This document shows positions 4,209 to 34,750 of a stretch of DNA of 64,000 bases, in pieces; positions within the stretch are counted from its first letter, which is position 1, and each line of letters opens with the position of its first letter. The translations under genes and the position numbers were made by a program. The notes beneath the pieces are model-generated. The model did not search any database. It was not told where the DNA came from and worked only from the letters and a program-made list of their open reading frames with translations. Origin of the DNA: a virus; IMG/VR virus record IMGVR_UViG_3300025117_000050, positions 32,702-96,701 of that record; one strand, 5' to 3'.

Positions 4209-6237
4209 TTGAGATATATTAAATTAAAATGTGAACAATATGATTGCAAAGCAGAATTTTTAATAGAATTAAATGATTGGTATAATAAAGAATATGAAGA
4301 AATAGTTCAAGATTTTTATATCTGTCCTATTTGTAATTCTTTAGTTCATTCAAATAAAGAAGATTGTATTATTGAAATTAAATCATTATAAAACAGAATC
4401 TATTTAAAAAAATATAAATTAGCCGAAAGGAGTAATTATATATGGATAGACTGACAAAAAGAACACCAAAAGGAATTGCATACATGGCTATCGCAGACAC
4501 ATTACCTAAAATAGAGCAAGAAATAGAAGGTTCAAAACCGATACTTGAAGAATTGTATGCAATGTTTCAAAAATTAGCAGATTATGAGGATAGAGACACT
4601 TCACAAAAACCAAGAGAGCATTATAATTGGGGTGATTTCTCAGATAAAGAAGAATATTCACATTGGTTTTGTGGTAAATGTGGTTGGGAATTGGATGAAG
4701 ATAAAAACTTCTGTAGTGAATGTGGACAAAGGATTGATTGGAGTTATACAAATAAAATTTAACAAAAAGTTCATTTGGTTTTAATTTTAAATAAAAAGGA
4801 GAGAAATAATATGGCGGATAAATCAATTTTCAAATGTCCTAAATGTGGTAAAAAATTTATTAGAGATTTGCATTATAATACAATAGTTGGTATGCAAAAT
4901 CTTATAAGTATTTCTTCTGATGGAGATGGAATTGAAGATATGTGTATGTGTTGTGGTTATATCGTTGTAAACAAAGATGTGGAGGATAAATAATAAATGA
5001 AAATGAATCCATTTAAGTTATATATGATTATGATAGGTTGTTTTATGATGGGTGTTTCCACTGGTATATCAATAGGAATAATTATCAAATAGGACTTTCA
5101 TCACGATTTTAGAAAGGAGTAAATTTTATGAATAATAATATTACTAAAGATATTAAATATCTAATTTTTAAACTTAATTGCGCAGAAGAAGACCAAAACT
5201 GGAGTTTGGTTATAGATGTAAGGGTGGAATTGGAAATGTTGATTGATAAAATTAATAAAGGAGAAGGAGAATAATAATGTTAAAAATTAAATATTATTGT
5301 GGACTAAGTTTAGATTTAAATCAAGAAAAAGAATGTGAGAGTCAAGGGATAATAGAATTGGATGACGATGATATTGAAGAGTATCATGAAGGATTTTATA
5401 GTATGGTATGTCCTTCATGTAAAAGAGAATTATATCAGTCAGAGGATCATTTTGAATTTATTGATGGAATGGAAGGAGAATAACCATGACAACTAAATTG
5501 TTATTAGAATTTACATTTGTAATATTCTTATTGCAAGTATATAAAACTAAATCATACTTCACACCATTAAAAATTAAGCAAGAAAAATTTGATAGTAATA
5601 GAGAAAATGTAGAAAAGTTTATAAATAAGAAAATATTAAATAAGATATTTATAATATTATCAATGTTATATGGCTCAATATATTTTACCTTCTACATAAT
5701 TGGAATAGAATTATTTAAAGAGACAAATTTAGTAGTATTTCCTATATTGATGATTGGATTGTTAACATATGATATTGTTAAAACTTTGTTAGAATTTAAA
5801 AGTGGTATGTTGTGGAATAGTATAATAGATAAATTAGAACATCCAATGACTACAGCATACTTGTTATATTTTGTTTATTATGTTTTGAGATAGGATTATA
5901 ATTAGAAAAAGGAGATAAAAATATGAAACGATTTAAATGCAAAGTAGAAAGAGTAAATGAATACATAATTGAGTTTGATGAAAATATATTAAATGAGGAA
6001 TGGATGGAATACTTTAGAAGTGTATTTTTTAATTATCATGAATTGGATGAACATGCTGAACATATAGCACAAATGAGAGCGAGATTTAAAAAAAGTTTTA
6101 TTGAAGGTTATGGTGTGCCGTTGATTGATGGTAAAGTATCATATTTTGCTAATGAAAAGAGTGTTAATAAAGCAATTAATATTATTATTGTAAGTGAAGA
6201 TGAAGATTATGAAGTAGATGTAGAAGAGATTATTTAA
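4209..6237 (+). other. Array of small hypothetical CDS (4209, 4442, ~4811, 5277, 5486 membrane protein, 5923), mostly zinc-ribbon proteins
   Basis: ORF track, RBSs, CxxC pairs; 5486-5893 has hydrophobic segments. Confidence 0.65.
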
Positions 6238-6250
6238 AGGAGATTAAATT

Positions 6251-6763
6251 ATGAACTTATTATTCAGTTCAGATATGCACTATTATCATAAAAATCTATC
6301 AATACACAGAGGATTTAATTCAATAGAAGAGATGAACGAGTTGATGATTGATAATCACAATGAAAAAGTTACTAAGAATGATCATATTTATATTCTAGGT
6401 GATTTTTCATTTGGTACAGTTGAACAAACATTAAAAATATTAGATAGGTTAAATGGAAATAAATATTTAATTATTGGAAATCACGATGAAAAAATGTTAA
6501 AGAGCAGAGAAGTGGTTAGTAAATTTGCATGGGTTAAAGATTATTATAAGTTAAAACATAATGGATTGAAAATTATATTATCACATTATCCATTTTATAG
6601 ATGGGATTGTAGTCATTATGAATCGTTGATGTTTTATGGGCATATTCATGATCAAAAATTAGATATTGAGATTAAGAATTCTTATAATGTAGGTGTTGAT
6701 GTTAATGATTATGAACCTGTGAGTTTGGAGGAGATATTAGGGAAGATTGATTATAAAAAATAA
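6251..6763 (+). CDS. Calcineurin-like metallophosphoesterase
   Basis: Motifs SDMH, LGDF, GNHD, SHYP, GHIH, NVGVD. Confidence 0.9.
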   Translation: MNLLFSSDMHYYHKNLSIHRGFNSIEEMNELMIDNHNEKVTKNDHIYILGDFSFGTVEQTLKILDRLNGNKYLIIGNHDEKMLKSREVVSKFAWVKDYYKLKHNGLKIILSHYPFYRWDCSHYESLMFYGHIHDQKLDIEIKNSYNVGVDVNDYEPVSLEEILGKIDYKK

Positions 6764-6895
6764 TTACAAAAATTAACATAATATTAATATAAAAAATGAT
6801 TGCATAGGACGAACTCTGGTTATAATATATATTATAAAGCACTATAGAAGTGTTACAAAAGTGTAAAATAATATATATTATAAGGAGTGATTTTA

Positions 6896-7336
6896 ATGAT
6901 TATTAAAACTCAAACTGCTAATGCTGTTAATGCTCAATGTTATAGGAAAGAGGAAGAGGTTGATTGGAGGTCGTGGTGTCCTAAACGTGGAGAGATTTAT
7001 TTGTGTCAGTTAGGAAATGAAGGTTTATTATATTCAGAAATTAAGGGTTATCGTCCAGTTTTAATAGCATCAAATGATATAGCGAACAGGCATAGCCCAG
7101 TAGTTACTATAATTCCATTAACTTCCAGTCAAATAAAAAATAACTTACCTGTTCATGTTAAAGTAGGGGTAGAAGAAGGGTTGCGAAATTTGAGTTTAAT
7201 TTGTTGCGAGCAGACTAAAACTGTGTCAAAAAATAGAATGTTTATAAACGGTAGTTTAGTTAAAATATGCAAATTAAGTAATGAATTAATGTGTAAAGTG
7301 GACAACGCATTAAAAATACAATTCGGATTAGTTTAA
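6896..7336 (+). CDS. PemK/MazF-family endoribonuclease, no adjacent antitoxin
   Basis: KRGEIYL...SEIKGYRPVLIASND..N..SPVVTIIPLTS...HV...CEQTKTVSK.R; ATG at 6896 follows AAGGAG. Confidence 0.88.
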   Translation: MIIKTQTANAVNAQCYRKEEEVDWRSWCPKRGEIYLCQLGNEGLLYSEIKGYRPVLIASNDIANRHSPVVTIIPLTSSQIKNNLPVHVKVGVEEGLRNLSLICCEQTKTVSKNRMFINGSLVKICKLSNELMCKVDNALKIQFGLV

Positions 7337-8881: not shown

Positions 8882-9475
8882 TTGATTGAATTTATTATAG
8901 GAGCATTTTTATATGCTAAATTTAAAAAAGGTTATAAGTTAAAATACATATTTAAATACCCATACATATTTGCGATAATACCACCTTTATTATGTGTTTT
9001 ACTATACATATATTTAGAATATTGTGTTTTTAATCAGCAATATTGGTTTTTCCCTTATCAACATATAATAAAGACTACAACGCTTATAAGTTATGTTCCG
9101 TTGATTTATATATATAATTTATATTATAATGATATATATGAAAATGATACATTAAAATCATTTTTAACATCTCCTGCTAGTAAAACTACATTTTGTTTAG
9201 GATTAGGCTCATTTTTAAACTATATGGCAATTATCTCTAACAATATGAAAATGCCAGTATTTCCCAGTAATTGTTATTGGACTGGTTATATTAAACCTGA
9301 ATTCATTAATGATGGTTTACATGTGCTAGGTGATGCTTATACTAAAGCAATCCCCTTATGCGATTGGATCGATTTTGGAATATATGTAGCTAGTCCAGGT
9401 GATATATTAATAAGATCATTTGCATTTTTAATTATTTATCATTCTATAAAAAATTCTAATAAAATGATAAAATAA
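8882..9475 (+). CDS. DUF5317-like integral membrane protein
   Basis: Hydrophobic; GSFLNYMAIISNNMKMPV...H...PLCDWI...SPGDILI pattern. Confidence 0.7.
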   Translation: MIEFIIGAFLYAKFKKGYKLKYIFKYPYIFAIIPPLLCVLLYIYLEYCVFNQQYWFFPYQHIIKTTTLISYVPLIYIYNLYYNDIYENDTLKSFLTSPASKTTFCLGLGSFLNYMAIISNNMKMPVFPSNCYWTGYIKPEFINDGLHVLGDAYTKAIPLCDWIDFGIYVASPGDILIRSFAFLIIYHSIKNSNKMIK

Positions 9476-9478
9476 TTG

Positions 9479-9507
9479 TTGACACATAATTAACTCTGTG
9501 GTAATAT
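9479..9507 (+). promoter_or_regulatory. sigma-A-type promoter for the sensor-agrD unit
   Basis: TTGACA-17 bp-TAATAT with TG extension. Confidence 0.6.
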
Positions 9508-9543: not shown

Positions 9544-10338
9544 ATGATACATGATATTACAAATGCTTTGTTAAATTTTTTACTTGTAAGTGTTTTGGAG
9601 GAGTTTGTATGGTTGTTAATAACCATAATATTATTAAAAAGATTTGATTTGCTTGATAGATATAGATGGAAAGAGAGTATGCGAGAATTTTTAATACCTA
9701 TCTTACCAACTGCACTTTATATCAATTTATCTAGATATGTTTTACATATGCCTAGAATAATAATATTATTTGGATGTATATTTATATTTTATGGTTTGAC
9801 ATTATATATAATAAAGAAAAATTCATTTATAGATGAAAAATTACCATATTTAAAAATATTAATGTTTGTATTTATAGGTATTCTTATTATAGGAATAACA
9901 GAATTGATTTATATGCCAATAATTTTATATATTATACAACAACCAGTAACAATAATGAATCAAAATATTTTAATGAATTTTGCATTTTCAATACCATCTA
10001 GAATATTTCAAATATTATTAATTCTTGCATTAATTTATAAATATAATGAAATTAAATTATTCAGCAATATAATAAAAGATAAAGTATTATTAATTATTAC
10101 AGTGTTGTTTTTAAGTATTATATTGCTAATAGTATTTATTACAACAAAAATTATTCATAGTTATTGTTTAATTTTAAACTTTTCTTTATATTCACAAATA
10201 TTAATTGGAATTAGCATAACAACAATTATAACATTAATAATATTTTTTTATCTTATTCCAATTAATTATTTAATAAATAAAATGTTTTTACTTAACAAAT
10301 CACATCAAAATATGTTTGATGATGATTATATAGATTAA
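9544..10338 (+). CDS. Multi-pass membrane protein resembling an AgrC N-terminal sensor domain, without HisKA/HATPase
   Basis: About 7 hydrophobic segments over 264 aa; directly upstream of the agrD-like ORF; ends in acidic tail NMFDDDYID. Confidence 0.55.
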   Translation: MIHDITNALLNFLLVSVLEEFVWLLITIILLKRFDLLDRYRWKESMREFLIPILPTALYINLSRYVLHMPRIIILFGCIFIFYGLTLYIIKKNSFIDEKLPYLKILMFVFIGILIIGITELIYMPIILYIIQQPVTIMNQNILMNFAFSIPSRIFQILLILALIYKYNEIKLFSNIIKDKVLLIITVLFLSIILLIVFITTKIIHSYCLILNFSLYSQILIGISITTIITLIIFFYLIPINYLINKMFLLNKSHQNMFDDDYID

Positions 10339-10359
10339 AATAGAAAGGAGGGAAATTTC

Positions 10360-10479
10360 ATGAAAAAGTTTGCAATTATTACTTCTTTAATTGGTATTAT
10401 CGGCATTATCTGTGCAAATTGTATTAATTCTGCTTGGACATTTAACCAACCGAAAGCACCATCTATGTTAGTTAAGTAA
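10360..10479 (+). CDS. agrD: AgrD-like cyclic lactone autoinducer propeptide, 39 aa (not in ORF track)
   Basis: AGAAAGGAGGG RBS, then MKKFAIITSLIGIIGIICANCINSAWTFNQPKAPSMLVK: hydrophobic leader, S-A-W-T-F core, QPKAP tail as in clostridial AgrD; agrB 1.4 kb downstream. Confidence 0.88.
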   Translation: MKKFAIITSLIGIIGIICANCINSAWTFNQPKAPSMLVK

Positions 10480-10496
10480 TTTATAACTACATAGAA

Positions 10497-10536
10497 TATT
10501 TATAGTAGAGGATGATTGTTTTCTCTACTATAAATA
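10497..10536 (+). terminator. 14-bp hairpin after agrD
   Basis: TATTTATAGTAGAG / CTCTACTATAAATA perfect inverted repeat. Confidence 0.7.
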
Positions 10537-10631: not shown

Positions 10632-11528
10632 ATGTCAATATTATTTGGTAAGAAGAATGTATTAAAACCTACTTCTACAAATTCTATTTCTGAAATAACA
10701 AAGAAAGAGTTAGCTTACAATATAAGAGTTGCCGTAGGTCATCGAAGTATTACTCAAGTCTGTAATATATTAAAAATGGTCGATCCAAAACCATTAGTTG
10801 ACTTAATAAAAATGAATTATAATGAATTACCTGATAGACAATTACTTAGAAAAATTGCATCTGCAAGCGAAGGTAGGGTTTCTTATCAAAACCTTTATTC
10901 TGTCTGCGGTTATTCCGAATTTGATTCTGAAGAAGATCGTAGTTGGGCAAAGTGGGTTCCTGAACGTGGTAGTTGTTATATGATTGATTTAGGATGGAAT
11001 ATGGATAGTGAGCAAAATTCTGTGCGTCCGGCAATAGTGATGCAAAACAACAAAGGCAATCAATACTCAGGAACAACCGTTATTATCCCTATATCTTCTC
11101 GTTCTAAAAAATTTTCTTCACAGATTCATGTATTATTAGAAAAAGAATTAGGATTTTTACGGGAATGTCAATGTTTTCCAGAACAAATTCGCTGTGTTTC
11201 AAAAAGGAGGTTCTTCTATAATTCTGTACCTTATAAAATCACTACTTTACCAGAACATAAATTATTAGAAATCAAAAACGCACTTGAGTTTGAACTAGGT
11301 TTTGAGCCTTTATATTTTGACGAAGAAAAAATATTTAAATTAATTTCTCATATTCGTTCTTTAGAAAATAATATTAAAATCAAAAAATCACATAATCTAA
11401 TTGATATATTAAATCAAAAAATGGATGATCTAAAAGAATACTGTTCAAAATATCATAAGAATCACAAGATTATCTTACAAGAATACGATAGAATCAACAA
11501 TTGCGGTTACAATGCAGTATCCATATAA
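10632..11528 (+). CDS. XRE-like HTH / PemK-MazF fusion protein with helical C-terminus
   Basis: N-term AVGHRSITQV...PDRQLLRKIASASEGRVSYQNLYSVCGY resembles clostridial XRE repressors; middle ERGSCYMIDLG...SEQNSVRPAIVMQNNKGN...IIPISS...EQIRCVSKRR is PemK/MazF. Confidence 0.8.
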   Translation: MSILFGKKNVLKPTSTNSISEITKKELAYNIRVAVGHRSITQVCNILKMVDPKPLVDLIKMNYNELPDRQLLRKIASASEGRVSYQNLYSVCGYSEFDSEEDRSWAKWVPERGSCYMIDLGWNMDSEQNSVRPAIVMQNNKGNQYSGTTVIIPISSRSKKFSSQIHVLLEKELGFLRECQCFPEQIRCVSKRRFFYNSVPYKITTLPEHKLLEIKNALEFELGFEPLYFDEEKIFKLISHIRSLENNIKIKKSHNLIDILNQKMDDLKEYCSKYHKNHKIILQEYDRINNCGYNAVSI

Positions 11529-11590: not shown

Positions 11591-11932
11591 ATGATAATCT
11601 TTGATGAAAAACAATTAAAATACTTATTTAATAAATACAAAATAAGATATAAAATATTTGAAGAAACAAATATTCTACTTATAGATAGTGGTCTTGATGA
11701 GTGGTTAATCAAGTATCAACATGGAAGAGATCAACCATATTGCCTTATGCACAAAAATAAATTAAAACAAACTAAAAGGTTCCATGTGCAGAGATGGTTG
11801 TCAAATTTTTATCAATCACTTGATAGTCTATTGTCACATAAAAATATTTTTGTAGATCATTCAAGTTCAAAAAATACATATAAAAAATATAGAAATAATA
11901 AAATAAATAATAAAAGGAGAAAAAGTTGTTAA
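11591..11932 (+). CDS. Basic hypothetical protein, overlapping the agrB start
   Basis: 113-aa ORF, AAGGAG RBS. Confidence 0.65.
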   Translation: MIIFDEKQLKYLFNKYKIRYKIFEETNILLIDSGLDEWLIKYQHGRDQPYCLMHKNKLKQTKRFHVQRWLSNFYQSLDSLLSHKNIFVDHSSSKNTYKKYRNNKINNKRRKSC

Positions 11933-12720
11933 AATATATAAAAAACTACATAATAACATTTCGTTATATCAAACTATTCTCATATTGGAATGCAAGATAT
12001 TTGCATAACAAACTAAAAGAAGAAAGAATTAGAGAATCACAAAACTTACATAATCCACATAAAGAAAAACATAAATATTATTATATATTGCAAATGATAA
12101 TTAAAAAATTATTTCAAATAATTAATAAAATAATTTCTTTAACTCCATTAGGAAGAAAACTATCATCGTACATAACTGAAAAATATTCACAATATAAACA
12201 GAAAGAGAAAAAACCTAAAAAAATATACAACAGATACACCTACTATTATGGTCTTCAAATAATCATCGGAGGCATAAATAAATTCCTTCTACTAATCATA
12301 CCAGGCTTACTATTTAACATCTTGCCGCAACTATTACTAACCACGTTATCATTTGTATCACTAAGAATATGGACTGGTGGTCTGCACTACAATTCTTATA
12401 CCAAATGCAGCTACATATCACTATTATCCTTCACACTCACAGCACTACTATCAAAATACATCATATTAAATCAATTTATCACTATGTCAATATTTCTATC
12501 TGTATTTATATTAATTTTAATCTATGCCCCTGTAGAACATCCAAACAGACCAATAAAAGAAAAAGAAAAAATTAAATACAAATTAATCGCATTATTTGTA
12601 TTAAGCACCTTAACTATTATCTATATGTTTACAAATAATGTTATTATCTGTAATTCTATTATATATGGGATATTATTAGCAGGTATAATTATGTTACCAA
12701 TTATAAATAAACTAAGATAA
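11926..12720 (+). CDS. agrB: AgrB autoinducer-processing membrane peptidase with basic N-terminal extension
   Basis: YGLQII, LRIWTGGLH...TKC (catalytic His and Cys), YAPVEHPNRPI signature. Confidence 0.92.
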   Translation: MLKYIKNYIITFRYIKLFSYWNARYLHNKLKEERIRESQNLHNPHKEKHKYYYILQMIIKKLFQIINKIISLTPLGRKLSSYITEKYSQYKQKEKKPKKIYNRYTYYYGLQIIIGGINKFLLLIIPGLLFNILPQLLLTTLSFVSLRIWTGGLHYNSYTKCSYISLLSFTLTALLSKYIILNQFITMSIFLSVFILILIYAPVEHPNRPIKEKEKIKYKLIALFVLSTLTIIYMFTNNVIICNSIIYGILLAGIIMLPIINKLR

Positions 12721-13258: not shown

Positions 13259-14635
13259 ATGCTTAATATTAAAAATGCTATGTTGATAAAAGAATTAAAA
13301 CCACTAATAATTAAATATGGAAACAATTCAAAAATTTATAATCTTGTTCACGAATCCTTTATTAAAAAGGGTTTAACGGGTAGTAATGCAAAAAATCTAT
13401 TTACAGGTAAACTACCATTAGAATCTTTAGATATCACTTGTCAAAAAGAATTATATTTATTATTTTCTTTTACTGATAGCATGAGAAAAGCATTAAATTC
13501 ATTTGATGAAATGTCTAAAGATACTTTTGGTTCAGAAGAAGAGTACTCAAAATTAAAACTAGAAAATTATTTTACTCCTATGGAAATTGAAGAGTTTACG
13601 GATTTCGTGATAGAGAAAGAAGAAATAAGTAGATATCCTTACAGATTAAAAAACATGTTAAAAGTTGGGGAAAATCACTATATAGGCATTATATCTGCTA
13701 GAGAATTATCTTGGATAGATGCCTCCAATGACATTGTTTATGATTTCGCTGTACAGCGTGATCCCAAAATTGATATATTTGGCATGAAACGTATTAATAC
13801 TGATTTAAAGAAAATAGATGAAATGACAGAGAAGTTACTTTCTGGCAATTACTTTTCAGATGAAATTAAGTTAAATGTTAAGAATGATGGTGAAGATCAT
13901 ATCGAATTCGATTCAAAAGACGGAATTTATGGTGATCTTATTATTCATTCAGGAACAATAACTTGTTTTGACGGTTATCACAGAAAAGCAGCCAATTCAA
14001 AAGTTATGAATATTAATAATGAATTGCAATTTAATTGGAAACTAGGTGTTACTAACTATCCAGAACCTAAAGCAAAAAAATTCATGATTCAAATTAACAA
14101 ACAAAAACCTATTAAGATTGAACACATCAGAAATATTGATGAAACAAGAAATGAAAATGTAATTGTCAATAATATTATCAATAATTCTAATTCCGAACTT
14201 GCTGATAAGATTAAAGATTCTGATGCAGAATTAAAACATGGTGGATTAACTAAAAAATCTATATTATCTTTAGCAATAGAAGAACAATATAAGGAATTTT
14301 TAGTTACTAAAATCAATAATATTGAAATATCTAATTGGATAGTAGAATTCACAAATCATTTAATGGGATTATATACTAACGAATTTTTATTTAATGTAGA
14401 CAAAACTAAAAAAATAAGTTATATTAATCATAAGAATATGTTTATGGGATATATCGCACTTTCAAGAAAATTGTATAAGCAAGATGATTGGAAAAATAAA
14501 ACTAAAAAAATAATGGAAAGCGTTGATTTTAGCATTGATAATGATATTTGGAAAAGTATTAAAATCAATGAAGATAATTTAAATAAAACATCAAAGAATG
14601 AATTATATAATATATTTATTAAAAAGCAGGTGTAA
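13259..14635 (+). CDS. DGQHR/DndB/ParB-like domain protein, resembling SPbeta YopQ (SroE)
   Basis: YDFAVQRD, FSDEIKLNV, FDGYHR, FMIQINKQKP motifs; sits directly upstream of an integrase-like gene. Confidence 0.6.
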   Translation: MLNIKNAMLIKELKPLIIKYGNNSKIYNLVHESFIKKGLTGSNAKNLFTGKLPLESLDITCQKELYLLFSFTDSMRKALNSFDEMSKDTFGSEEEYSKLKLENYFTPMEIEEFTDFVIEKEEISRYPYRLKNMLKVGENHYIGIISARELSWIDASNDIVYDFAVQRDPKIDIFGMKRINTDLKKIDEMTEKLLSGNYFSDEIKLNVKNDGEDHIEFDSKDGIYGDLIIHSGTITCFDGYHRKAANSKVMNINNELQFNWKLGVTNYPEPKAKKFMIQINKQKPIKIEHIRNIDETRNENVIVNNIINNSNSELADKIKDSDAELKHGGLTKKSILSLAIEEQYKEFLVTKINNIEISNWIVEFTNHLMGLYTNEFLFNVDKTKKISYINHKNMFMGYIALSRKLYKQDDWKNKTKKIMESVDFSIDNDIWKSIKINEDNLNKTSKNELYNIFIKKQV

Positions 14636-32189: not shown

Positions 32190-34750
32190 TGATACCATAT
32201 ATTCAAACAGATGGTAAAAATAAAATTAATTGCAATGTAGATTTAATTATTTTAGATGAAAGTGAACCAATATTAATTTCTTTATGTGATTTAAACATTA
32301 AGAATAAAAAAATATGTGCAGATTTAATTTCTCATTCTTATGAATTATCACTAAGAGATAGAGAAGATACATTTTATAGTAAGAATTTATATGGTAGAGA
32401 TAATCATTATAGATATAAGTCAGATAAAATGGAGAATAATTTAACTCATACAATTATATATAATACTAAAATTAATCAGTATTGCATTAATTGGAATAAT
32501 GAAGATAAAAGTAAGATTCTTACTAAGTATTTTAGAAATATTCATTATTTACCTGTTACAAGTGAAATTGTAAAAATAATTTTAGACAAAGATAAAATTG
32601 AACAAGACAAATATAAATATAGTAGTTATGGTTATGTTAGTGAATGTACAGTTTATACTAATAATCCAATGTTTGCAGAGTTAAAAGTATATAAAATTAA
32701 TGTAACTTGGTTTAAAGAGAAGTTAAATAATTTGAAATTAGAAGGTTTTAAAGATGATTTTGATTGGAGTACAATTGAGGATATTGAAGGATATATTTTC
32801 AAATTTTTAGAACAAATTAAAGAAAGATTAAAGAATAATATTAAGATATTGTATAATAAGGATAATATTAATCCTAAAATATTTGAGGGTAAATTAAAAC
32901 CTTTTGATGGTCAAATACCTGTGATTCAAGCAGGGTTAGAAGTGTTGAAGAGAGATAGAGTTGTTTATTTAAATTGTGAACAAGGATTCGGAAAAACATT
33001 ATGTGCAACAAAAATTAATCATTGTTTTTTATATCAACATAATAAAAATTATGTAACATTTATGACCATACCATCTATTACATTAACTCAATGGAAAGAT
33101 GAAATAAAAAATAGTATTAAAGATAAAGTATATATACATATTATTAAGAAAACTACAGATTTTATTAAACTATATAATCAAACTAATTTACAATTTGATA
33201 AACCTACTTATATTCTTGTTGGTAAAGAAACATTTAAACTTGATGCTAAAAAAGTATCAGGAGTAAATATAAAAACTAGAGAAATAAAAATGAAAAAAGA
33301 AGTGCAACATAATTATTACTATAAAACTATTGAAATAGTTAAAGAAAAAATCACTATTGCTTGCTGTCCTGATTGTGGAGTACCATTAAGAAATGAATTA
33401 AGGAAAAAAGAAGATGTATTTTTTACAGAAAAAGAATTTCAAGGTAATCCTAAGAAATCAAATTATAAATGTTATAATTGTAATAGTGTCTTGTGGCAGA
33501 AAACATATGATAAAACAAAGAAAGTAAGTTTAATAAATTTTATTAAAGTAAAAAATATTCATTTTGATAGTGTAATTATTGATGAAATACATCAGGCAAA
33601 TGGTATAGAAACAATAATTTCAAATGCTACTAGAACTTTATTTAACTATAGTAAAAAAATAATATGCCTTACAGGAACCTCAAATTCAGGATATGCTTCG
33701 TCAATTCATAATATTCTTTTAGGATTATTCCCTAATAAACTTAAAAAGAATGAAGTATTAGATATTAAACAATTCATAAAAACATATGGAACATTAATGG
33801 CAGTTAGCAAGAAAAGAGATGGAGAATATTATCGTTATGGCAGAAGTGAGATTAAAGATAGCGATTATAAAGAGGTCGAAGGGATAAATAGTATCGCTTA
33901 TACAAAATATCTAGCAGAAAATTATATATTTGCAACATTAGACGATTTAGGAAAAGACTTACCAGAATTAATTGAAACATATATTCCAATTAAACAAAGT
34001 GACATTATGGAATCTAATGAAAAAAGACTATGGGATGATATTAAATCAGCAAATGCATTTAATTCAAAAATGTATGAGGATTCAATTGTAAAACATTACA
34101 TTAATAATCCTTTTAATTGGGATAGTATATCTATTGAAGGGAAAGATGTAACAAATATTGTTCAACCAATTTGTATTCCCAATATTATTTTACCAAAAGA
34201 AAGATTGCTTCTATTAGATATTGTTCAACAAGAATTATTAGAAAATAGGAAATGTTGCATTTATACATTCTTTAATAACGGTGGAATGTATATGCAAAGT
34301 GATACTATATCAAAAAGAATTGAATATTTACTAAATAAAAATAATATTAGAACATTTACATTGAAACAATCTGTCCCTACATATGAAAGAAGAGATTTAA
34401 TTGAAAAGAAAAAAGATAATTTTGATGTATTAATAACTAATCCTCAACTAGTTGAATGTGGAATTAATATGGTATTTATTCCAAGTTATATAAATTATAT
34501 GCCAAGTTATCATATTAATATGGTAGATCAATCTAATAGAAGAGGGTATCGTGCAAATAGTACGTTAGAAAATAGAATTTTTCATTTGTATTATGACAAT
34601 TCATGTGAAAATAGTATTATCAAAAGATACCAAAGAAAGAAAGCAGAAAGTAAGGCAATTGTAGGACAATTCAATATTGCATTAGAAAATGATGATTCAA
34701 TTAGAACTGCAAGTAAGTTTGGTAAGAAAATTAATGATGGAGTTGTGTAA
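32189..34750 (+). CDS. SF2 (SNF2-like) helicase with zinc-ribbon insertion
   Basis: EQGFGKT, CPDC...CYNC, IIDEIH, LTGT, VECGIN, QSNRRGYR; coupled to the MTase by TAATG overlap. Confidence 0.85.
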   Translation: MIPYIQTDGKNKINCNVDLIILDESEPILISLCDLNIKNKKICADLISHSYELSLRDREDTFYSKNLYGRDNHYRYKSDKMENNLTHTIIYNTKINQYCINWNNEDKSKILTKYFRNIHYLPVTSEIVKIILDKDKIEQDKYKYSSYGYVSECTVYTNNPMFAELKVYKINVTWFKEKLNNLKLEGFKDDFDWSTIEDIEGYIFKFLEQIKERLKNNIKILYNKDNINPKIFEGKLKPFDGQIPVIQAGLEVLKRDRVVYLNCEQGFGKTLCATKINHCFLYQHNKNYVTFMTIPSITLTQWKDEIKNSIKDKVYIHIIKKTTDFIKLYNQTNLQFDKPTYILVGKETFKLDAKKVSGVNIKTREIKMKKEVQHNYYYKTIEIVKEKITIACCPDCGVPLRNELRKKEDVFFTEKEFQGNPKKSNYKCYNCNSVLWQKTYDKTKKVSLINFIKVKNIHFDSVIIDEIHQANGIETIISNATRTLFNYSKKIICLTGTSNSGYASSIHNILLGLFPNKLKKNEVLDIKQFIKTYGTLMAVSKKRDGEYYRYGRSEIKDSDYKEVEGINSIAYTKYLAENYIFATLDDLGKDLPELIETYIPIKQSDIMESNEKRLWDDIKSANAFNSKMYEDSIVKHYINNPFNWDSISIEGKDVTNIVQPICIPNIILPKERLLLLDIVQQELLENRKCCIYTFFNNGGMYMQSDTISKRIEYLLNKNNIRTFTLKQSVPTYERRDLIEKKKDNFDVLITNPQLVECGINMVFIPSYINYMPSYHINMVDQSNRRGYRANSTLENRIFHLYYDNSCENSIIKRYQRKKAESKAIVGQFNIALENDDSIRTASKFGKKINDGVV

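Follow-up and report, generated by a model that had tools for sequence, protein, structure and literature searches.

The window analysed here is a 64,000-nucleotide stretch of DNA (positions 32,702 to 96,701 of the 96.7-kb IMG/VR record IMGVR_UViG_3300025117_000050, rated ~49% complete by CheckV) from a large groundwater phage, and it encodes a seven-transmembrane (7TM) protein of 264 residues that is probably a homologue of the sensor module of AgrC-type histidine kinases, without the DHp and ATPase domains. The gene occupies positions 9544 to 10338 on the plus strand (all coordinates are positions in the window, and all genes and sites given for it lie on that strand) and directly precedes agrD, the gene for the propeptide of a putative cyclic signal. 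It is proposed that the protein acts as a kinase-independent receptor for this cyclic peptide and signals by protein contact, a reading in which confidence and doubt are evenly balanced. The sequencing runs listed as containing the phage are of groundwater, soil, and sediment metagenome DNA, and none of them is of RNA.

Agr is the textbook example of quorum sensing by cyclic peptides in Gram-positive bacteria, and in all described cases of which we are aware a histidine kinase reads the peptide; many Clostridia also have agrB together with agrD, or only agrD, and no known receptor. The sensor-only family to which the 7TM protein belongs, tied to agrD both in bacterial operons and in a clade of phages of 150-230 kb, is a candidate for this missing receptor and points to a phosphorylation-free signalling route. 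The pairing of a kinase-less AgrC-type protein with agrD looks like an undescribed way of reading cyclic-peptide signals, and a literature search found no description either of such a protein or of an agrB-7TM-agrD operon. The family has a cultured carrier in Anaerobacterium chartisolvens, whose hypothetical protein WP_114296864.1 is a member of the bacterial subfamily.

A complete membrane protein without a kinase domain

The 7TM gene is a full-length open reading frame that ends in a TAA stop codon (10336-10338). An AlphaFold2 model, built with 17 homologues as input, has a mean predicted local distance difference test score (pLDDT) of 81, a predicted template modelling score of 0.74, and seven long helices, with the last membrane segment placed at residues 215-245 within a helix (215-261) that reaches into the cytoplasm. 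Lysine and arginine residues number 6, 1 (+3), 3, and 2 in the successive segments predicted to lie inside, and 0 in each of the four outside segments, which indicates that the N-terminus is outside and the C-terminus inside. The cytoplasmic C-terminal tail (residues 246-264, encoded at 10279..10335) comprises a conserved amphipathic helix followed by the acidic end DDDYID. An original prediction, made from the sequence alone, had described an AgrC-like membrane protein that is complete rather than broken, that has no kinase domain, and that ends in an acidic tail some 15 residues after its last transmembrane helix; that length was roughly right, the tail measuring 19 residues, and both completeness and the missing kinase are borne out by the comparisons below.

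The conserved polar residues of the family (N11, S16, E19/E20, N61, E120, R153, and Q218) are intramembrane and lie towards the outer leaflet. E19 is the sole invariant residue across the 91 family members; together with E20 (codons at 9598..9603) it sits in the middle of helix 1 as part of an S-x-P-E-E motif. At position 18 of this motif, at least 90% of members carry proline, and the window codon (9595-9597) specifies leucine; this position is relaxed in the window's sub-clade while E19 is invariant, since the two closest relatives carry serine and proline. The first cytoplasmic loop, K-R-F-D-L-L-D (residues 32-38, 9637..9657), is invariant among close phage-type relatives at every position except L36.

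A word-indexed search of 5.8 billion proteins identified 17 homologues, of which 16 measure 263-279 residues and one is a 162-residue fragment; the C-terminal helix and acidic end are common to the close homologues. Exhaustive searching of 1.8 billion cluster representatives with phmmer yielded 102 matches, none longer than 326 residues, and a search with the profile of the 91-member family gave 53 members of at most 361 residues each, while a search limited to proteins of 490-2000 residues returned no relatives; AgrC kinases, at ~430 residues, fall within the length ranges covered by these searches. The prediction had allowed for the case in which close homologues all carry a kinase domain and the window copy is a recent truncation. 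This is not so: every one of the roughly 100 relatives is short (at most 361 residues) and none has a kinase domain, which indicates that the 7TM protein is not a truncation. The short tail is shared by the close phage-type relatives; members of the bacterial subfamily (~315 residues) have the same N-terminal motif and a cytoplasmic tail ~50 residues longer; this longer tail bears no similarity to the cytoplasmic (DHp) region of AgrC (P 0.25).

The 7TM protein matches no family in Pfam or NCBIfam, the NCBIfam AgrC model NF046015 having recognised a real AgrC-like kinase as a positive control, and across the 91 members Pfam finds no family in common and no consistent HATPase_c_5 domain (PF14501). 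Neither a DHp domain nor a phospho-accepting histidine was found in the 7TM protein, which has only its 19-residue tail past the last membrane helix, and the family has no conserved histidine. A phage database gave no match for DNA or protein. In the ESM Atlas the sole match was the cluster to which the protein itself belongs (637 members, 76% viral), with no cluster of kinases. Profiles of HATPase_c_5 and of the LytTR regulator domain (PF04397) had no match in the window's own record, in four genomes of related phages with a completeness rating of 100% (166-230 kb; terminal repeats in two of them), or in a fifth genome rated at 82%, from which it follows that the phage cassette is really kinase-less. 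A LytTR regulator was likewise absent from the genes adjoining the bacterial agrB-7TM-agrD operons examined.

A probable distant relationship to AgrC-type sensors

For profile comparison, the sensor regions of 24 AgrC-like kinases with HATPase_c_5 domains were excised; these kinases come from relatives of a metagenome-assembled genome (MAG) that carries the phage cassette. In a local hhalign comparison, the 91-member 7TM profile matched the 24 sensors with Prob 92.4%, P 5e-7, and score 51 (102-184 against 80-170), and in a global comparison with Prob 95.9% and P 2.6e-9, the alignment being colinear from 2-259 against 1-230 and stopping at the linker that precedes the DHp domain. A second profile-profile comparison with fresh alignments gave Prob 93.6% and E 2.2e-7 over 169 columns. 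In these alignments E120 of helix 4 (codon 9901..9903) is aligned to E98, the residue that is best conserved among the AgrC-type sensors (17/24). Three disjoint AgrC subsets each matched the 7TM family at ~6-9e-5, and the phage-type and bacterial-type profiles taken separately matched the sensors at 4.6e-7 and 3.2e-5, respectively; the alignment register is identical for the whole-family profile, the phage-type profile, and alignment A3, and is shifted in the bacterial-type alignments.

About 60 controls were run, consisting of shuffled profiles and real membrane families, and the best P among them was 0.0025. A reversed profile gave P 0.017, ten column shuffles 0.5-0.9, and 24 block shuffles at least 0.0025; among real polytopic families, the AgrB of the cassette gave P 0.48 (the 7TM protein has no Pfam match to the AgrB family PF04647 either), DUF5317 0.054, and CPBP, rhomboid, and DedA proteins from the same low-GC genomes at least 0.009. 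As a positive control, two AgrC subgroups compared against each other reached 97% and 7e-11. An AgrC-sensor hidden Markov model (HMM) gave 12 of the 91 family members scores above the best of 80 controls, colinearly, with bias scores that were high.

An AlphaFold2 model of an AgrC-like sensor (pLDDT 83) places its elements at the positions of the 7TM model that the alignment predicts. The order common to both models is transmembrane helices 1 to 3, a long helix 4, a short outer helix, helix 5, a cytoplasmic helix, helix 6, and helix 7 continuing into a cytoplasmic helix. Homology of the 7TM protein to the AgrC sensor module is therefore considered probable, and the relationship appears to be a distant one, detectable at the level of family profiles only. 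As to the AgrC-like label given in the prediction, family profiles (Prob 92-96%) and modelled helix layout agree with it, and the protein sequence from the window by itself yields no signal.

Pairing with agrD and a proposed kinase-independent receptor

The window agrD gene (10360..10479) encodes a 39-residue propeptide with a predicted ring S-A-W-T-F followed by N-Q-P-K-A-P. Its ATG lies 21 nucleotides beyond the 7TM stop codon, with GGAGG at 10347-10351, and a promoter-like site (9479..9507; TTGACA, 17 nucleotides, TAATAT, with TG before the -10 element) lies inside the 68-nucleotide gap between the DUF5317 and 7TM genes. The short gap and this site suggest that 7TM and agrD are co-transcribed; promoter-like matches in the surrounding AT-rich region are not enriched over shuffled sequences, so the site is only a plausible start of the transcript. 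The propeptide has the features of an AgrD, with a hydrophobic leader, a serine or cysteine five residues before a conserved C-terminal recognition tail that contains proline, and an AgrB gene nearby. An AgrD gene follows the 7TM gene in 37 loci. The consensus of the 37 pairs is [S/C], four residues, and [N/H/Y/S]-Q-P-[K/R/E]-x-P, with the serine or cysteine invariant and the ring residues hypervariable. In many of these peptides a signal-peptidase-type A-x-A site immediately precedes the ring serine or cysteine, so that a dedicated leader protease is not needed.

Relatives were located on 16 IMG/VR contigs (24-230 kb) and two MAG contigs. Among 18 matched phage-type copies, 17 are followed by an AgrD-like open reading frame of 37-54 residues, the exception being an orphan second copy in locus L015, and in all 18 phage-type loci the next gene after agrD encodes a helix-turn-helix (HTH) protein fused to a MazF RNase. 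In the window this HTH-MazF protein (10632..11528, 298 residues) consists of an N-terminal domain, a PemK/MazF core (residues 111-219; PF02452, 3e-17), and a helical tail. Second 7TM copies without agrD are present in L008, L015, and L016-L019 (for instance L008:8764-9597, L015:6001-6852, and L016:8611-9432), immediately 5' of a homologue of the window's gene for a 458-residue protein (13259-14635); such an orphan copy might be an eavesdropping receptor.

In bacteria, the order on metagenome contigs, the longest of which measures 328 kb, is agrB (PF04647, 4e-40), 7TM, and agrD. A divergent small HTH_3 (XRE) regulator is encoded downstream of agrD in five of the seven bacterial loci with enough flanking sequence; it adjoins agrD in four of these, and in L054 one gene lies in between; the N-terminal domain of the phage HTH-MazF shows no significant similarity to these bacterial XRE proteins (P 0.06). 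One bacterial locus, L063, holds two tandem 7TM-agrD pairs (4491-5447 and 6001-6951) with differing rings, C-F-W-F-L and S-L-W-G-W, which indicates that the 7TM and peptide genes appear to duplicate as a unit. In another (L060:6022-10582), a 7TM-agrD pair is followed 1.5-3 kb downstream by a full AgrC-type kinase (HATPase_c_5 and SPOB_a) and a second agrB, so that receptors with and without a kinase half occur side by side in one genome as distinct genes. The MAG with the phage cassette, which is carried on a 176-kb contig, also has a canonical chromosomal locus with genes for a LytTR regulator and an AgrC-like kinase and with agrB in divergent orientation (L020:32-2592); the likely host lineage thus has a running Agr system of its own. 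Among 399 sampled genomes of this MAG's phylum the family was found in that MAG only, a sample that may miss the Clostridia carrying the bacterial subfamily.

The case for a receptor thus rests on the strict pairing with a peptide of hypervariable ring, the paired duplications, the orphan paralogues, the HTH neighbour, and the absence of a kinase or LytTR gene from complete related phages; tandem pairs and orphan copies together form a pattern typical of receptor diversification. In the mechanism proposed, the 7TM protein would descend from, or share an ancestor with, the sensor module of AgrC-type (HPK10) kinases, and would form with the downstream AgrD gene the core of a kinase-less Agr variant. 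The cyclic lactone peptide made by AgrB, with the predicted ring SAWTF, would most likely be bound at the outer face of the 7TM protein, and the signal would be passed on by protein contact, not by phosphorylation, via the conserved cytoplasmic face, formed by the KRFDLLD loop and by the C-terminal helix and acidic tail. As the partner, the HTH protein encoded right after agrD would be likeliest. The prediction had suggested that the protein might hold the XRE-MazF at the membrane, jam host AgrC, or act as a peptide sink; of these, output through an adjacent HTH protein is favoured by the gene context, as an HTH gene lies beside agrD always in phage-type and usually in bacterial loci. A more elaborate scheme, in which lactone binding alters how the conserved loop and acidic tail hold or inhibit HTH-MazF, the tail resembling that of a membrane-anchored MazE antitoxin, in which phage-to-phage signalling thereby gates RNA cleavage and the choice between lysis and lysogeny, and in which the same receptor acting via a small XRE protein explains the "orphan" AgrD of Clostridia, is speculative and would have to be called improbable as a whole.

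Several observations weigh against the receptor reading. Co-variation between ring and protein, which in the phage subfamily hints suggestively at peptide recognition, is weak (partial r 0.41 with the outer half and 0.00 with the inner half, 17 phage-type pairs) and absent in 11 bacterial pairs. Neither the window protein alone nor the 17-sequence close profile showed similarity to a single AgrC, and the 7TM-family HMM ranks AgrC sensors no higher than controls (p 0.15); the S-x-P-E-E motif of helix 1, with the family's only invariant residue, has no AgrC counterpart. In addition, invariant glutamate and arginine residues embedded in the membrane would suit an enzyme or transporter equally well, and the position of the bacterial 7TM gene, with agrB on one side and agrD on the other, is one that a biosynthetic gene might occupy.

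The last two points also fit a peptide maturation or export factor in the signal-producing half of the system. Such a factor would assist AgrB, either by carrying the cyclised AgrD intermediate across the membrane or by cleaving off the leader, sensing being left to the AgrC-AgrA of the host. The invariant E19 and the conserved E120 and R153 are what is seen in membrane enzymes or carriers, the gene duplicates jointly with agrD, and the cassette-carrying MAG has a canonical agrA-agrC-agrB locus. However, the 7TM protein matches no protease or transporter family, its comparison with CPBP profiles stays at control level, and it has no conserved histidine, serine, or cysteine able to act as a catalytic residue; orphan copies exist without agrD, many AgrD peptides carry a signal-peptidase-type site before the ring, and sensor modules are the only detectable relatives. 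Such a role is considered unlikely. A specific candidate of this kind, a CPBP or Rce1-like protease (PF02517, the family of MroQ of S. aureus), was rejected: of the family's motifs, E-E-x-x-x-R, F-x-x-x-H, and H-x-x-x-N/D, the E19-E20 pair is present with neither an arginine at +4 nor a conserved histidine, one of the 91 members matches PF02517 (E 0.036), and hhalign comparison with 19 CPBP proteins gave P 0.009-0.18.

That the protein could instead be an unrelated seven-helix protein with some other role in the cassette, its AgrC profile match arising from shared hydrophobic composition, is improbable. It is true that neither single-sequence comparison nor Pfam, NCBIfam, the ESM Atlas, or structure-library searches including Foldseek gave a link to AgrC, that bias scores in the HMM test were high, and that HH-suite tends to give over-optimistic P-values when membrane proteins are compared. 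Structure libraries are uninformative on the 7TM fold, however, because the solved AgrC structures are of cytoplasmic modules only; the ~60 composition-matched controls all fall at least 3.5 orders of magnitude short of the match, the register recurs with independent subsets other than the shifted bacterial-type alignments, E120 coincides with the best conserved residue of the sensor set, and the secondary-structure elements of the two models correspond one for one.

Another reading is a decoy or modulator of the host Agr system, a phage protein that would soak up peptide, or pair with host AgrC, to block or retune quorum sensing during infection. The sensors to which the family is related come from relatives of the cassette-carrying MAG, this MAG encodes its own AgrC-like kinase and LytTR regulator, and the phage cassette encodes no kinase. 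Yet agrB-7TM-agrD operons are found on bacterial chromosomes, where jamming one's own system would make little sense, one bacterial contig encodes a 7TM protein and, in a distinct gene, a complete AgrC-type kinase, and the cytoplasmic loop and tail show a strong conservation for which a passive sink would have no use; the chances of this explanation are regarded as slim. Slimmer still are those of an immunity protein that shields the producer from a cyclic peptide acting mainly as a growth inhibitor. In its favour, the layout of a small peptide gene and a membrane protein gene duplicating together is a classic one for bacteriocins and their immunity proteins, and growth was slowed by 50 µM of the lactone pentapeptide of C. 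thermocellum, which belongs to the same AgrD subtype (PMC5322536). Against it, the five-residue AgrB-made rings resemble known signalling peptides, an HTH regulator is always adjacent, orphan 7TM copies stand directly 5' of the homologue of the 458-residue protein gene, and the family is related to a sensor module.

Phage cassette and comparison with known systems

The phage cassette, as traced by tblastn with the window neighbours, reads (MazF), (DUF7487), DUF5317, 7TM, agrD, HTH-MazF, (small open reading frame), agrB, (small open reading frame), and the 458-residue protein; a short MazF is encoded at 6887-7336 of the window. The DUF5317 membrane protein (8882..9475), encoded directly 5' of the 7TM gene, is kept in most phage-type cassettes and was not seen among the bacterial agrB-7TM-agrD operons. 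AgrB, the membrane peptidase and cyclase that processes AgrD, is encoded at 11926..12720 (PF04647, 9e-37). Between agrD and HTH-MazF lies an inverted repeat (10497..10536; a perfect 14-bp repeat with a 12-nucleotide spacer), the RNA of which forms a hairpin of 16 bp (-19.4 kcal/mol, z -4.8); it lacks a trailing U-run and a terminator scan made no call there. The repeat could mark the end of a transcript, stabilise the RNA, or serve the HTH protein as an operator.

The closest comparison is with AgrC itself (HPK10; AgrC of S. aureus, NF046015, and clostridial AgrC-like kinases). Both are polytopic sensors of ~200-250 residues with the N-terminus outside and the C-terminus inside, and they share profile-level colinearity, the membrane glutamate of helix 4, the order of helices, and a gene beside agrD in a cassette with agrB. 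Unlike AgrC, the 7TM protein lacks DHp, the phospho-accepting histidine, and HATPase_c_5, has no cognate LytTR regulator in the phage, and displays the S-x-P-E-E motif in helix 1 and the conserved K-R-F-D-L-L-D loop; its gene lies 5' of agrD, whereas agrC lies 3' of agrD. A phage precedent is offered by the agr3 locus of Clostridioides difficile phage phiCDHM1, which reportedly carries agrB, agrD, and agrC without agrA, its agrC being a full histidine kinase. That locus resembles the window in joining phage agrB and agrD to a receptor-type gene with no agrA, and differs in that the kinase half is missing from the whole 7TM family and that the cassette includes HTH-MazF. Kinase-independent membrane sensing by contact has other examples: PtsG holds Mlc at the membrane, and UhpC and BceAB are co-sensors, each of which passes its signal to a partner protein. 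By analogy with these systems, the 7TM protein may be a polytopic protein that reports its ligand by contact to a regulator or a separate kinase; there is no sequence relationship between them, and for the 7TM protein the contact is a proposal.

Among bacteria, Clostridium autoethanogenum has an Agr system 1 in the order agrB1-agrC1-agrD1 that lacks agrA. It resembles the bacterial 7TM operons in having the receptor gene between agrB and agrD and no adjacent response regulator, and differs in that AgrC1 and AgrC2 are described as putative histidine kinases (PMC8748961). The closest parallel for the peptide is Clo1313_2818 of C. thermocellum, which is cleaved between A24 and S25 to give a ring S25-F29 followed by Y30 and P35, and for which a tail-less lactone pentapeptide was confirmed by liquid chromatography-tandem mass spectrometry; no AgrB, AgrC, or AgrA was identified for it (PMC5322536). 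This propeptide is like the AgrD peptides of the 7TM loci, that of the window included, in the succession of alanine, cleavage site, serine, four residues, an aromatic residue, and Q-P-x-x-P, and unlike them in that no neighbouring agr genes were reported in C. thermocellum (PMC5322536). A member of the 7TM family may be the missing neighbour or receptor of this orphan peptide.
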